Below are positions 55,601 through 63,792 of a stretch of 64,000 nt of DNA, one piece after another. The notes beneath the pieces are model-generated. The model was not told the origin of the DNA. It saw only the letters and a list, made by a program, of their open reading frames with translations, and did no database searches. Both the position numbers and the translations under genes were made by a program. The stretch is from a virus. The stretch is from the IMG/VR virus record IMGVR_UViG_3300008107_000012. One strand, 5' to 3'. Each line of letters begins with the position of its first letter. Position 1 is the stretch's first letter.

Positions 55601-56021
55601 ACTTTTCACTATCAAAGGTGGAAAAGTTAATGTACTAGGAATTACCAAAGCAATGGTAATTGCATTTATTACATCTAGTATTGTAGTTGCTATTGCAGGA
55701 TATTTTAAAATCTCTCAAGATGACCTTTGGAAATTTGTAGTTCTTATACAGCAGGAATTGGGAATTGAATTTGGAGAAGACCTGAATGAAAAATTCAGGA
55801 ATGATGAGAAGTTATTAGATTTTATCACAAAGAACAAAGTAGATCAAGCCATATATGACTATGAACGATTGACAGGAGACGATGGAACCCCTAGAATACC
55901 TTTGCCACGGTTGATAGAGAAGGCTCCAGATACTTCTAATTGTTATACTGAAGAGTGTAAGAAACTTGGAGGAGAAATGAGACTCTGTGCCCCATGGATT
56001 GACACCTGTAAACCAGAGTAG
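55593..56021 (+). CDS. hypothetical membrane-anchored protein with Cys-rich C-terminus
   Basis: TM segment; CYTEEC..LGGEMR.CAPW. Confidence 0.6.
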   Translation: MIKLFTIKGGKVNVLGITKAMVIAFITSSIVVAIAGYFKISQDDLWKFVVLIQQELGIEFGEDLNEKFRNDEKLLDFITKNKVDQAIYDYERLTGDDGTPRIPLPRLIEKAPDTSNCYTEECKKLGGEMRLCAPWIDTCKPE

Positions 56022-56027
56022 TATAAT
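55999..56027 (+). promoter_or_regulatory. consensus sigma70-type promoter heading the tRNA island
   Basis: TTGACA-17 nt-TATAAT (another perfect copy at 53921-53949). Confidence 0.85.
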
Positions 56028-56115
56028 ATTCTCACGGGTGTCGGGGGTCCAAACTCCGAGTAATTCCCAACCTTCCCATGCCTCTCAACGATGCACAAAC
56101 AGGGAGGTCTCTTAT

Positions 56116-56191
56116 GGGCAAGTAGCATAATGGATAATGCAGCATCCTTCTAAGATGTCGATTGGGGGTTCGAGTCCCTCCTTGCCTGCCA
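56116..56191 (+). tRNA. tRNA-Arg(TCT)
   Basis: Cloverleaf; loop cttctaa; encoded CCA. Confidence 0.92.
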
Positions 56192-56262
56192 GGGGAATTA
56201 GTTAAACGGTATAACGGGTGCTTTGCAAGCACTTATTAGCAGTTCGATTCTGCTATTCTCCA
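56192..56262 (+). tRNA. tRNA-Ala(TGC)
   Basis: Loop tttgcaa; G3:U70. Confidence 0.9.
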
Positions 56263-56315
56263 CTTGACTTTTTGAGAAAAAAGTCTTATAAATAAAAACA
56301 CTTAGGTCGAAAACA

Positions 56316-56417
56316 ATGTCTTATCCAATGCCCACCAAACAGTTTAGTATTCTCGATTGCCGCTATTGGCATATTGAGGGTACTCCCCTGTTTGCGGATA
56401 TGGAAAGACATATGTAA
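56316..56417 (+). CDS. 33-aa putative leader peptide MSYPMPTKQFSILDCRYWHIEGTPLFADMERHM
   Basis: TATAAATA at 56287-56294, SD-like aggt, overlaps an antiterminator hairpin. Confidence 0.6.
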   Translation: MSYPMPTKQFSILDCRYWHIEGTPLFADMERHM

Positions 56418-56444
56418 GATGTAATCCATAAAAGCAAAAAGACA

Positions 56445-56478
56445 GGGGAGAGAAACCAAAAGTTTCCTCCCCTTTTTT
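56445..56478 (+). terminator. intrinsic terminator, conditional (5' arm shared with antiterminator 56383-56450)
   Basis: ggggag-a-gaaac / gtttc-ctcccc followed by T6. Confidence 0.85.
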
Positions 56479-56611
56479 GTTGCCTGTGACAGTTTCCTAA
56501 GTGACCACCAACCTCCCCCCAGAGACAAAACGGTGGTATTCTAATCAAGTGGTTGAGGGATCACCCCTCTTCCAGAACCTAGACAACTGAATATTTATCC
56601 TTATTATGAAT

Positions 56612-56684
56612 GGGTCTGTTGCATAGTGGCTAATGCACCTGGCTTTTAACCAGTATATCGTGGGTTCGAGTCCCACCAGACCCA
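56612..56684 (+). tRNA. tRNA-Lys(TTT)
   Basis: Loop cttttaa. Confidence 0.92.
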
Positions 56685-56688
56685 TCGT

Positions 56689-56779
56689 GGGAGAGTGCCT
56701 ACTGTCGGCAATACGTGTAGGAGCGGTCTGTAAAACCGTCACATAGGAACCATCGGGGGTTCGATTCCCTTCTCTCCCA
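56689..56779 (+). tRNA. tRNA-Tyr(GTA) with enlarged D arm
   Basis: Loop ctgtaaa; D arm cctac-14 nt-gtagg. Confidence 0.85.
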
Positions 56780-56783
56780 CCTT

Positions 56784-56856
56784 GGCCTCTTAACTCAGCG
56801 GTTAGAGTGTCTGCCTGTCTAGCAGAAAGTCAGGGGTTCAAATCCCCTAGAGGTCG
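56784..56856 (+). tRNA. tRNA-Asp(GTC), U37
   Basis: Loop ctgtcta; G73. Confidence 0.88.
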
Positions 56857-56860
56857 TCGT

Positions 56861-56932
56861 GTTCCTGTCGTCTAATGGTTAGGACGCTGCCCTTTCAAGG
56901 CGGAAACGAGGGTTCAAATCTCTTCAGGAATA
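56861..56932 (+). tRNA. tRNA-Glu(TTC)
   Basis: Loop ctttcaa. Confidence 0.9.
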
Positions 56933-56936
56933 CTAT

Positions 56937-57008
56937 CTGGGAGTATGTCAGTGGTAGACAGCGCCGCCTGGAACGGTGAAGTCGTTGGTTCAAATCCAAC
57001 CTCTCAGA
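56937..57008 (+). tRNA. tRNA-Pro(TGG), atypical C33/A37
   Basis: Loop cctggaa; C1-G72, A73. Confidence 0.8.
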
Positions 57009-57011
57009 CTT

Positions 57012-57085
57012 GGGAACATAGCTCCAACTGGTAGAGCACAGGATTGAAGATCTTGGTGTTGTCGGTTCAAATCCGACTGTTCCCT
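57012..57085 (+). tRNA. tRNA-Phe(GAA)
   Basis: Loop ttgaaga. Confidence 0.88.
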
Positions 57086-57211
57086 CTTGACCTTTATGGT
57101 CACGGAGATTCACTTCCTCCGTTATGAAACTTCGGTTGGTTAGTGATAGGTTTTTCAGTCCGAAAACTGAAACTGGTAGGTTGTTGATATCGACTCCTAC
57201 CTTGATGGAAT

Positions 57212-57265
57212 TAGAACAAGAGATTCATACCCTCTATGTCGGTAGTTCAATTCTACCCACTGCCT
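57212..57265 (+). pseudogene. 3' two-thirds of a tRNA with CAT anticodon; 5' acceptor strand missing
   Basis: tagaac-a-agaga ttcatac cctct-atgtc-ggtag ttcaatt ctacc-cactgcc; no ggcagtg partner at the expected place. Confidence 0.7.
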
Positions 57266-57266
57266 T

Positions 57267-57338
57267 GTGTCGTTAGCCTAGTGGTTAAGGCAGTAGTTTG
57301 TGGAACTACCTAGATGGGTTCAATTCCCATACGACACC
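57267..57338 (+). tRNA. tRNA-His(GTG)
   Basis: Loop ttgtgga; C73. Confidence 0.9.
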
Positions 57339-57340
57339 CC

Positions 57341-57412
57341 GCCCTTATAGCTCAGTGGTAGAGCAACTCACTAGTAATGAGTAGGTCGTTGGTTCAAATC
57401 CGACTGGGGGAT
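57341..57412 (+). tRNA. tRNA-Thr(AGT)
   Basis: actca ctagtaa tgagt; G1:A72 mismatch. Confidence 0.8.
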
Positions 57413-57445
57413 CTCAACTATCTGGAATTTCCAGATAGTTCAAAT

Positions 57446-57523
57446 GTCTAGGTGGCAGAGTGGTCGAATGCGGTGGATTGCAAATCCACTATTATCGCGT
57501 GGGTTCAAATCCCACCCTAGACT
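57446..57523 (+). tRNA. tRNA-Cys(GCA)
   Basis: Loop ttgcaaa; U73. Confidence 0.9.
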
Positions 57524-57528
57524 CCTAC

Positions 57529-57600
57529 TCCAGAATCGACTAACTGGCAGGTCAACACACTTTGACTGTGTTTGTCTAGGTTCGAATCCTAGTTCTGGAA
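57529..57600 (+). tRNA. tRNA-Gln(TTG)
   Basis: Loop ctttgac; U1-A72. Confidence 0.88.
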
Positions 57601-57621
57601 TTGCTTCTTTTAGAAGCATCA

Positions 57622-57732
57622 ATCTTGTCTGGACAGCGGTTCGATTCCGCTCACTTCCATTCTTGGGGGTGCCATGGTTTTCGACAGGCAGGAGGGTTCT
57701 GAGAATAAATCTCAACAACATCGTATCTTTCC
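57622..57732 (+). ncRNA. ssrA: circularly permuted (two-piece), minimised tmRNA-like gene with truncated tag
   Basis: Acceptor piece (GAC-agcgg ttcgatt ccgct-cacttcc-A) precedes the 5' piece GGGGGTG-ccatGGtttTCGACagg; G3:U70 and A73; tag-like codons NNIVSF. Confidence 0.8.
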
Positions 57733-57804
57733 GGGATAGTGTAATTGGTAGCACGGAAATCTCCAAAATTTCTAGTTAGGGTTCAAGTCCCTATCCCTTC
57801 GCCA
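57730..57804 (+). tRNA. tRNA-Trp(CCA) with the three terminal acceptor pairs broken
   Basis: Loop ctccaaa; G73 and CCA intact; 5' tcc faces 3' ttc. Confidence 0.75.
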
Positions 57805-58147
57805 AATTATAATGCAATTTGAAATGACAATTAGCACATAAAATTTGACACTTATTAATTTCAGTCATTATTCTTTCTTTTGACCAACCTTGGTTTATTG
57901 TTTTAGAAATTTCTATCTCTTTTTCTTCTGGGTTTTTATGGTGAAATTGAATTGTTGCTGGGTGATTTTCTCCACACATTTCGCATTCTAATTGTTGTTT
58001 GTAATTGCTAAACCATTCTCGTAATTCTTGTTTTCTTTTTTTTACTTTATCGCAGGATTTTGGTTTGTTATTGGCATACCATTTTCTTCTTGCTTCCCTC
58101 CTTCTTTCTTGATTGTTGGGATCTGATAACCATTCTTTTGACGGCAT
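57791..58147 (-). CDS. HNH endonuclease, antisense to the tRNA array
   Basis: CEMC...FHH.NP..K...KC..LCANCH..LH; own TATAAATA on the minus strand at 58173-58180. Confidence 0.85.
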   Translation of the reverse strand: MPSKEWLSDPNNQERRREARRKWYANNKPKSCDKVKKRKQELREWFSNYKQQLECEMCGENHPATIQFHHKNPEEKEIEISKTINQGWSKERIMTEINKCQILCANCHFKLHYNLAKG

Positions 58148-58199
58148 TTTTATTATTCAAAGTCTCCTAAACTATTTATAAGTTTTGGATACTATACTT

Positions 58200-58274
58200 G
58201 CCCTGGTAACTCAGTGGAAGAGTGCTTCGCTACGAACGAAGAAGACGGGGGTTCAAATCCCTCTCAGGGTGCCA
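58200..58274 (+). tRNA. tRNA-Arg(ACG)
   Basis: Loop ctacgaa; encoded CCA. Confidence 0.92.
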
Positions 58275-58311
58275 TTTCAAATCTAAATATCAACAGAGGT
58301 GTGATAGGAAA

Positions 58312-58782
58312 ATGGAATTAGTAGAACCAAATTCAACTATACTAGTTCTGAACAGTTCTTACGAACCACTACACTTCACTAATTGGAAACGTGCAATTGT
58401 TTTGCTCTTCAAACAAAAAGCAAAACTCATCTCCAAGAGAATTATTCGTTTGGTAAATTATGTGAAAATTCCATTTTCCTATGGAAGATCCGATTACCCA
58501 ACGAGAGCACTCATCTATAAACGGGATGACCACGAATGTCAATATTGTGGGTCTAAAAATGATCTTACAATTGATCACGTAGTTCCTCGTTCTAAAGGTG
58601 GACAAGATACTTGGGAAAATCTAGTTGCTTGTTGTACTTCTTGTAATCTTAAAAAGGGGAATAGTCTTCTTAAAGAAACTAATATGGTTTTGAAGAGAAC
58701 ACCAGAATCTCCAATTAGCCGAATAGTTCTTGATCTTCAGAAAACAAAAGTTTCTGAATGGAAAGATTATTTGTTTCAGTAG
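58312..58782 (+). CDS. HNH endonuclease (McrA-like)
   Basis: LVLN.SYEPL, RD...CQYCG, LTIDHV.PRS.GG...WENLV..C..CN..KG. Confidence 0.9.
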   Translation: MELVEPNSTILVLNSSYEPLHFTNWKRAIVLLFKQKAKLISKRIIRLVNYVKIPFSYGRSDYPTRALIYKRDDHECQYCGSKNDLTIDHVVPRSKGGQDTWENLVACCTSCNLKKGNSLLKETNMVLKRTPESPISRIVLDLQKTKVSEWKDYLFQ

Positions 58783-63627: not shown

Positions 63628-63754
63628 AACTTATACTGGTGGAGTCAAATATGACCCTGTTTGGTTTCTTGCTTCCTCAAAGAGCAAGTGGTGCGGATGG
63701 GACTCTCTCCCGCCTGGTTTCCAATTTCCAGTCAAAGAATTGGTGGCGTGCATG
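63609..63754 (+). ncRNA. manA-like structured RNA
   Basis: gtc..gac hairpin + ctggt module, then two TTTC(Y)NNNTTCC..AAAGANNNNGTGG units joined by GTGCGGATGGG..CCCGCC, ending GGCGTGCATG; recalled consensus only. Confidence 0.65.
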
Positions 63755-63764
63755 AAAGACCTAT

Positions 63765-63792
63765 AGGAGAGTTGCATAAACTCTCCTTTTTT
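63765..63792 (+). terminator. intrinsic terminator after the manA-like RNA
   Basis: aggagagtt / aactctcct followed by a T run. Confidence 0.85.

Follow-up and report, generated by a model that had tools for sequence, protein, structure and literature searches.

Phage transfer RNA (tRNA) arrays are now viewed as answers to codon mismatch and to tRNA-targeting defences, and their regulation is essentially unknown. One such array lies in the IMG/VR virus record IMGVR_UViG_3300008107_000012, of which we analysed a stretch of 64,000 nucleotides (nt), hereafter the window. It belongs to an AT-rich (36% GC), T4-like cyanomyovirus and contains 23 tRNA genes between 56116 and 63044 (ARAGORN). Within the array, a gap of 347 nt from the end of tRNA-Ala at 56263 to the start of tRNA-Lys at 56611 is occupied by a short open reading frame (ORF) embedded in competing hairpins, hereafter the leader element, whose closest named relative is found in Synechococcus phage S-PM2 (72% identity over the element). 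What would such a folded leader do among tRNA genes? A first-pass annotation, made from the sequence of the window, had proposed an attenuator that gates the array and senses the supply of all its tRNAs. We consider it probable that the element, which heads the main tRNA block of this T4-like cyanophage, is a transcription attenuator of the ribosome-mediated leader-peptide type; that it works as a sensor of overall tRNA supply seems to us possible but doubtful. The parts of the leader element are the following:

56264-56294, plus strand: promoter, with a -35 box TTGACT (56264-56269), a 17-nt spacer and TATAAATA (56287-56294).
56295-56315, plus strand: short 5' untranslated region (5' UTR), with a weak Shine-Dalgarno-like AGGT (56304-56307) 8 nt before the ATG.
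56316-56417, plus strand: leader ORF of 33 codons, from ATG at 56316 to TAA at 56415-56417, with the family core D-C-R-Y-W-H-I.
56302-56424, plus strand: ORF-spanning hairpin (1:2), with the 5' arm at 56302-56361 including the start codon, the 3' arm at 56368-56424 including the stop codon, and an apical hairpin at 56346-56384.
56379-56457, plus strand: antiterminator (2:3), with the 5' arm at 56379-56411, which is the last third of the ORF, and the 3' arm at 56419-56457, which includes the 5' arm of the terminator.
56434-56483, plus strand: intrinsic terminator (3:4), with a core stem 56444-56456/56462-56473, a T-run at 56473-56478 and an extension of A/U pairs.

The folds of this region are far more stable than its composition would give: positions 56300-56500 reach -73.3 kcal/mol against -41.1 +/- 4.4 in shuffled sequences (z = -7.3). 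The minimum free energy state in the window is the ORF-spanning hairpin, at about -47 kcal/mol, which the first-pass annotation had missed. The antiterminator that it had described is borne out, with the pairings 56383-56391/56442-56450, 56392-56395/56434-56437 (one wobble) and 56399-56404/56425-56430; folded alone, the segment 56375-56460 gives exactly this hairpin at -30.3 kcal/mol, compared with about -18 for the terminator, and the stop codon of the leader lies in its apical loop. The terminator stem, followed by TTTTTT, uses the 3' arm of the antiterminator as its own 5' arm, so that the two folds are mutually exclusive, as had been claimed. Similar energies recur across the family described below, with a mean of about -40 kcal/mol for the ORF hairpin, -24 to -35 for the antiterminator and -18 to -22 for the terminator. 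The element combines an ORF, a terminator, an antiterminator that shares strands with it and a 1:2 anti-antiterminator, which are the four structural features of a leader-peptide attenuator, and as predicted from the folds its layout is the classical four-segment 1:2, 2:3 and 3:4 arrangement. No Rfam family matched within 56264-56610 at E <= 1, nor did any in five relatives.

The 33-codon frame at 56316-56417 had also been recognised correctly. The late promoter proposed at 56287 is there as TATAAATA, but the site is not purely late-type, a consensus -35 TTGACT having been missed; its motifs would suit a sigma-70-type promoter as well as a T4-type late one, whose motif has been applied to cyanophages (PMC3037559). 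ATAAATA is kept in all 72 distinct upstream flanks of the family (first base T; C in one), and TTGACT stands at -35 in 39 of them. The 5' UTR block is nearly invariant in the alignment of 79 sequences and is replaced in a few members. Concerning the peptide, no PHROG matched and no Pfam family matched at or near threshold; the sole Pfam match, DUF6695 for the S-PM2 peptide (E 0.18, 12.6 bits against a cut-off of 25 bits), was set aside as sub-threshold. An exhaustive search among 1.8 billion proteins returned only three micro-ORF representatives, which, together with the lack of Pfam and PHROG matches, argues against the leader ORF being a domain of a larger protein. A type I toxin mRNA with a 5'-3' fold-back was considered and rejected; the peptide is polar, varied in composition and devoid of hydrophobic stretches.

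How widespread is the element, and where does it stand? Scanning IMG/VR with a codon-degenerate pattern for the core returned at least 120 loci, 118 of them homologous and two being chance matches. Another scan used the promoter and the 5' UTR alone as its anchor, and is therefore unbiased for the ORF; core variants of the leader were present in 25 of its 120 loci. The element thus occurs in more than 140 IMG/VR contigs, plus the cultured phages S-PM2 and S-CREM1. In S-PM2 a 34-codon ORF, unannotated (LN828717 108824-108928), lies between tRNA-Arg(tct) and tRNA-Lys(ttt), and its start, stop, promoter and terminator all align with those of the window. S-CREM1 has a divergent member, annotated as the coding sequence (CDS) SCREM1_59, that was found by inspecting the regions upstream of related tRNA-Lys genes in cultured phages; upstream of the tRNA-Lys of S-CRM01 there is no such module. 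Among the matches listed, the element always stands in a tRNA array, behind 1-3 tRNAs and ahead of 10-28 others. The gene for tRNA-Lys(ttt) follows in about 110 of the 118 loci, about 180 nt downstream, and the tRNA about 50 nt before the ORF is Arg-tct in 67 loci, Ala in 14, Asn in 7 and Gly in 3. One locus, L126 (6990-7370), was set aside as a likely rearrangement or assembly chimera: the promoter and the first 17 leader codons are followed by unrelated sequence without tRNAs. The tRNA genes on both sides of the element in the window are:

56116-56263, plus strand: tRNA-Arg(tct) and tRNA-Ala(tgc), directly upstream of the leader (ARAGORN and Rfam tRNA matches).
56611-58274, plus strand: main tRNA block, with Lys, Tyr-like, Asp, Glu, Pro, Phe, His, Thr, Cys, Gln, a tmRNA-like RNA, Trp and Arg.

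Since two tRNAs precede it, the element sits within the array and not before it. The first-pass annotation had placed the leader at the head of the tRNA block, which holds for the main block but overlooks tRNA-Arg(tct) and tRNA-Ala(tgc); these two would lie outside the gated part of the array. Likewise, of the 13 tRNA specificities that it had listed downstream, 11 were called by ARAGORN, Tyr is present only as a tRNA-like gene and the supposed Met is a mere remnant. The Tyr-like gene (56689-56778) has the anticodon GTA and an enlarged, irregular D arm, was missed by ARAGORN, gives only a weak tRNA-Sec-like match in Rfam and is syntenic with the tRNA-Tyr of S-PM2.

The conservation of the reading frame is marked. 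ORF length is kept in homologous loci: of 119 complete copies, 118 carry an uninterrupted ORF of 31-34 codons with the same start and stop, and the ORF is also intact in 22 of 23 complete core variants; in the family one contig is frameshifted and one is chimeric. All the insertions and deletions (indels) within the ORF are multiples of three (3, 6 or 9 nt), among them the loss of one codon and the gain of two in the apical loop, whereas those in the 60 nt past the stop measure 1, 2, 3, 4 or 7 nt.

The pairing is kept as well. Covariation was analysed in a MAFFT alignment of 79 distinct sequences against 500 shuffles and slid controls. The closed state, that is, the ORF hairpin plus the terminator, is 90.8% paired with 22 of 69 pairs changed on both sides, and in the antiterminator 91.5% of the cells are paired and 10 of 26 pairs changed on both sides; no shuffle reached either result (0/500 each) and the slid controls gave only 39-56% pairing, the counts of changed pairs exceeding the number of independent events because most family members are closely related. 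For the terminator helix, of 20 pairs, the corresponding values are 93% paired and nine pairs changed on both sides, and the T-run is present in 79 of 79 unique homologues. Compensatory changes are therefore present in both of the alternative hairpins on which the first-pass annotation had built its switch. The hairpin around the stop codon covaries, and codon 2 and the third-last codon change together in such a way that the helix joining start and stop is kept while the residues at both ends of the peptide are altered. The basal antiterminator helix pairs a C-rich with a G-rich strand, and its register and sequence differ among the main group, S-PM2, L012, L059, L161 and S-CREM1; in the divergent members (SCREM1_59 of S-CREM1, L161, the L012 group and S-PM2) all three helices are kept with different sequences. 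One variant replaces Cys by Met with the apical stem re-paired, and codons of the loop vary, Arg becoming Gln, Leu or Gly, and Tyr becoming Asp or Glu or being deleted. Because compensatory changes alter amino acids, what appears to be selected is the open frame and the RNA pairing, not the identity of the peptide. Read from the alignment, this combination is the signature of a cis-acting translated leader, and it argues against a plain microprotein gene and against a plain non-coding RNA.

The opposite strand also carries an open frame, and it was considered as a gene. In the window it spans 56286-56528, minus strand; in S-PM2 it is annotated as a CDS (LN828717 108647-109003; S-PM2p160 in AJ630128, also S-PM2p160/d160; L001 2864-3220) that overlaps tRNA-Arg, the leader ORF and the terminator. 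The frame is open over the core in 75 of the 79 sequences, which a hairpin would lead one to expect. Neither its ends nor its start is conserved, and it extends across a tRNA and the terminator, so the minus-strand gene was rejected. Since the frame lacks conserved ends across the family, S-PM2p160 is probably a mis-annotation, and the real feature at this place of the S-PM2 genome would be the unannotated leader ORF.

A second module is that of phages B3 and B23. It was found upstream of tRNA-Lys and its sequence is unrelated to the main family, with the same arrangement of parts; its only carriers are B3, B23 and one IMG/VR contig. Neither in B3 nor in S-CREM1 does a tRNA lie upstream of the module.

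MN695334 45550-45855 (L157 1195-1500): B3 module, with ATAAATA, the 30-codon ORF b3_0050 and its stop codon in a hairpin loop; then an antiterminator of -22.4 kcal/mol, a terminator of -18.4 kcal/mol, a boxA-like GAACCTTGACAA, and tRNA-Lys, Trp and Asp.

The peptide of b3_0050 contains three Asn-Asp-Trp repeats and three Lys, and the tRNA genes behind it begin with Lys, Trp, Asp and a pseudo-Asn (enrichment P about 0.002). This match between repeats and tRNAs is the strongest hint toward sensing of tRNA supply, as far as codon content can suggest it. Clustered codons that may be regulatory, a further feature of attenuators, are found only in B3; the leaders of the main family have no such repeats.

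How would the element operate? Transcription would begin at the TTGACT-N17-TATAAATA promoter, or would arrive from the upstream tRNAs, and proceed into the 33-codon ORF. In an untranslated RNA the ORF-spanning hairpin 1:2 would form and leave segment 3 free, allowing the terminator 3:4. A ribosome that is slow or stalled at roughly codons 1-19 would cover segment 1, so that the antiterminator 2:3 could form and RNA polymerase would read through into the boxB/boxA-like leader and then tRNA-Lys onward. On the contrary, a smoothly moving ribosome on codons 20-33 would mask segment 2 and the terminator would form. The ORF, the conservation of its frame, the three covarying helices and the position relative to the tRNAs are established; from them we infer the translation of the ORF, the termination at this site, the direction of the switch and the signal, which would be general decoding speed or tRNA availability.

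A model of the nascent transcript, with the RNA made just up to segment 4 and a ribosome footprint of 30 nt, is crude and indicative only. In the window, the predicted sequestration of the terminator 5' arm in this model is 0.12 with no ribosome, 0.6-0.7 with the A site at codons 1-18 and 0.1-0.3 with the A site at codons 20-30. In this sense, an early stall would lead to read-through and smooth or no translation to termination, with the boundary at the end of the conserved core, and the phase of codons 20-30 is similar in S-PM2, L006 and L033. The stall logic proposed in the first-pass annotation is thus reproduced in the window, with mixed results in relatives.

Several observations weigh against the attenuator. 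In about half of ten relatives the nascent model does not reproduce termination in the state without a ribosome. When the full transcript is folded to equilibrium, the terminator prevails with the ribosome at nearly any position and no switch is seen, so that a switch, if there is one, would have to be kinetic, like that of classical attenuators. The leader has only a weak Shine-Dalgarno-like sequence, and its start codon is hidden in helix 1:2; the main family lacks runs of regulatory codons, and the relatedness of its members overstates the covariation, as mentioned. Neither leader-peptide attenuation nor a coupling of transcription to translation is known to be established in cyanobacteria. 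Finally, a -10-like element stands behind the terminator in every subgroup and is followed by a boxA-like leader, and it could transcribe the array alone. These parts lie in the 130 nt between the terminator and tRNA-Lys, which are conserved mainly in sequence:

56534-56542, plus strand: extended -10-like element TGGTATTCT, conserved in alignments; candidate independent promoter of the array.
56551-56573 and 56575-56586, plus strand: hairpin followed by the boxA-like GAACCTAGACAA, resembling an rrn-type boxB-boxA leader, 24 nt before tRNA-Lys.

The first-pass annotation had itself cautioned that a promoter near 56486-56545 might transcribe the array independently, and the conserved -10-like element gives substance to this caution. 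In some relatives a TTGAYT box lies 17 nt upstream of it, and in the S-PM2-like, S-CREM1 and B3 groups a TATGAT-like box comes right after the T-run, so that the array may have its own host-type promoter downstream of the terminator, judging from these motifs. Given such a promoter, what the attenuator contributes would be a further, regulated input that starts at the TATAAATA promoter and possibly matters late in infection. The claim that the leader gates the array is made uncertain by the conserved -10-like element and the boxA-like leader between the terminator and tRNA-Lys. The boxA of the cyanobacterial internal transcribed spacer is GAACCTTGAAAA (PMC8461337), and the phage sequence matches it at 10 of 12 positions in the window, a match at chance level when taken alone, and at 11 of 12 in S-PM2, B3 and L031 at the same position; its conserved position is the sole support for this putative element. 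Between the terminator and tRNA-Lys, RNAalifold finds one short helix only, with little covariation. In L022, L055 and L097 the module of -10-like box and hairpin past the terminator is duplicated, which adds about 90-100 nt.

The attenuator also has to be compared with three other explanations. In one, the element is an independent micro-gene whose product is the 31-35 amino acid peptide; it would have its own promoter and terminator, the folds would tune translation or mRNA stability, and the array would be served by the downstream -10-like promoter, which is present past the terminator in all groups. The conserved ORF, the widely kept residues W-H-I-E-G and P-L, a Gly codon that varies at the third position only and the CDS annotations in S-CREM1 and B3 all agree with it. 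Still, we regard a micro-gene as unlikely: residues vary freely where pairing can be kept (both termini, the Cys to Met change, the loop Arg and Tyr that are replaced or deleted) and those that are conserved coincide with stems. A simple gene does not need a covarying antiterminator that competes with its own terminator, the B3 peptide is unrelated while the RNA layout is the same, and no protein family matches. It is, on the other hand, very unlikely that the element is only a stable, structured small RNA of about 180 nt without coding function, made together with the tRNAs as are the species 1 and 2 RNAs of the T4 tRNA cluster, with an incidental ORF. The fixed start and stop of the ORF speak against it, as do at least seven independent in-frame indels, some in the apical loop, versus out-of-frame ones just outside the ORF; no Rfam family matches either. 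The very stable fold (z = -7.3), the extensive covariation and the paired start codon would suit such an RNA, and the antisense frame, open in 75 of 79 sequences, indicates that open frames can arise in the leader hairpin, but that frame has neither conserved ends nor a conserved start.

A plain terminator or insulator would end the transcripts of the upstream tRNAs and shield the promoter of the array, the alternative fold having no regulatory role. The invariant promoter between tRNA and ORF, the conserved reading frame and the covariation in the competing 2:3 helix are left unexplained by it, and there is no upstream tRNA to be terminated in B3 and S-CREM1. An insulator is thus quite unlikely in our opinion, even if most loci have a tRNA immediately before the element, the terminator is followed by a -10-like element and a boxA-like leader, and equilibrium folding favours the terminator. 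The leader-peptide attenuator remains the explanation that we prefer.

If the element is an attenuator, does it sense all tRNAs, as the first-pass annotation had proposed? The diversity of the peptide is unusual. Its first 22 residues contain 17 different amino acids, as had been noted, and only 0.23% of the 22-mers from the long ORFs of the window reach 17; in the family the first 22 residues hold 14-18 different amino acids, compared with 12.1 +/- 1.7 in the proteins of the window. Whole leader peptides have on average 18.7 of the 20 amino acids versus 14.5 +/- 1.8, and only 0.45% of 33-mers reach 19. In the main family 18-20 different amino acids occur in about 33 codons, and the divergent L161 has 19. 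However, other results weigh against an all-tRNA sensor. The leader of S-PM2 has only 15 different amino acids and that of B3 only 14, and certain members lack one or another of the supposed sensor codons (Tyr, Cys, Arg). When residues are shuffled within the columns of the alignment, the mean diversity stays the same (P = 0.37), so nothing indicates that it is maintained as such. Leader residues and downstream tRNAs overlap only weakly (P = 0.08 for the window, 0.04 for S-PM2, 0.16 for S-CREM1), and with 20 or more tRNAs downstream such a match is nearly trivial. Rare codons are not significantly enriched in the leader (16th percentile). Of the earlier proposal, then, the unusual diversity holds, while its maintenance is not demonstrable, codons of the core loop vary and the codon/tRNA match is weak (P = 0.08 in the window), B3 excepted.

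We therefore hold only tentatively, and with some doubt, that the leader is a general sensor of decoding capacity or tRNA supply that samples nearly all amino acids or, in B3, the codons of the first tRNAs. In such a sensor, the pioneer ribosome would stall whenever any host tRNA ran short or was cleaved, and the phage tRNA array would be switched on. Silencing of a host tRNA gene has been described in Synechococcus WH5701 (PMC11726456). If the sensor is real, a shortage caused by host tRNA silencing or by anticodon nucleases would call up a self-tuning countermeasure to tRNA-based resistance.

Among known systems, the trpL, hisL, pheL, thrL, leuL and multivalent ilvGMEDA leaders of E. coli and Salmonella have the same short translated leader, the 1:2, 2:3 and 3:4 helices, an intrinsic terminator and a target on the same strand, and follow the same logic as that proposed here, in which an early stall leads to read-through. 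They regulate biosynthetic enzymes, whereas the cyanophage element precedes viral tRNA genes. Unlike them, the main family has no run of a single codon and spreads 18-20 amino acids over its length, repeats occurring only in B3; its ORF runs through segment 2, with the stop codon in the antiterminator loop and the start codon buried in 1:2. In the bmrB leader of B. subtilis bmrCD (PMC4191407) and in the erm, cat and ABC-F leaders, stalling in a short ORF also remodels the RNA and relieves termination, and the general sensing of slowed translation is alike; these leaders respond to ribosome-targeting drugs and control resistance proteins, many of them at translation, and have no sequence relationship to the cyanophage leader. 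By analogy, the element would work most like the multivalent ilv leader or the resistance leaders of translation stress. T-box riboswitches likewise control read-through, in response to tRNA charging, but they bind the tRNA directly and have no ORF; a T-box was rejected here, there being no Rfam T-box match and no T-box sequence in the window element or in five relatives. In the rrn-type boxB-boxA leaders of cyanobacteria a hairpin likewise precedes boxA; the candidate boxA of the phages (a match at 10-11 of 12 positions) stands with its hairpin between the terminator and the first gated tRNA, at a position conserved in the family and in B3. Unlike in those leaders, this putative element lies in a phage tRNA array behind an attenuator. 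The rnTrpL/peTrpL pair of Sinorhizobium (PMC6614838, PMC7298713), a terminated leader RNA of 100-200 nt and its peptide, has functions in trans, and by the same analogy a second role of the cyanophage leader is possible.

What is new compared with known attenuators is the tRNA-gene target, the viral owner, the diverse and not repetitive leader of the main family, and the stop codon in the antiterminator loop. A literature search found no published description of this element or of attenuator control of tRNA genes. If true, this would be the first attenuator known to control tRNA genes and a rare viral instance of leader-peptide attenuation, set moreover in a cyanobacterial host, and it suggests that the phage adjusts its own tRNA supply to the decoding performance of the ribosome. 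The case provides a large and well-sampled family that is present in cultured cyanophages. As these have laboratory hosts (S-PM2 in Synechococcus WH7803 and S-CREM1 in CB0101; also B3), the hypothesis is directly testable.

Other features of the window accompany the array. No further cassette of mini-ORF and terminator was seen in the remainder of its tRNA array. The tmRNA-like RNA at 57586-57792 scores 56.6 bits with cyano_tmRNA, below the gathering score of 70, abuts tRNA-Trp and contains a tmRNA_permuted match at 57626-57690 (48.5 bits, gathering score 47). The array also has insertions of two ORFs that resemble HNH endonucleases: that at 58222-58782 on the plus strand is clearly HNH (E = 4e-16) and its start overlaps tRNA-Arg(acg), and that at 57791-58147 on the minus strand has a weak HNH match, with TATAAATA at 58173-58180 on its strand. 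Upstream of the first tRNA, tRNA-Arg(tct), there is a perfect sigma-70-type promoter, TTGACA-N17-TATAAT (55999-56027), and just before the same tRNA an abiF RNA motif (Rfam, 56072-56108, 49 bits, gathering score 37), which also precedes the first tRNA in the relative L022 (5782-5818). Beyond the array, a wcaG RNA motif matches at 63660-63757 with 102.5 bits and is followed by a terminator-like hairpin at 63765-63787.

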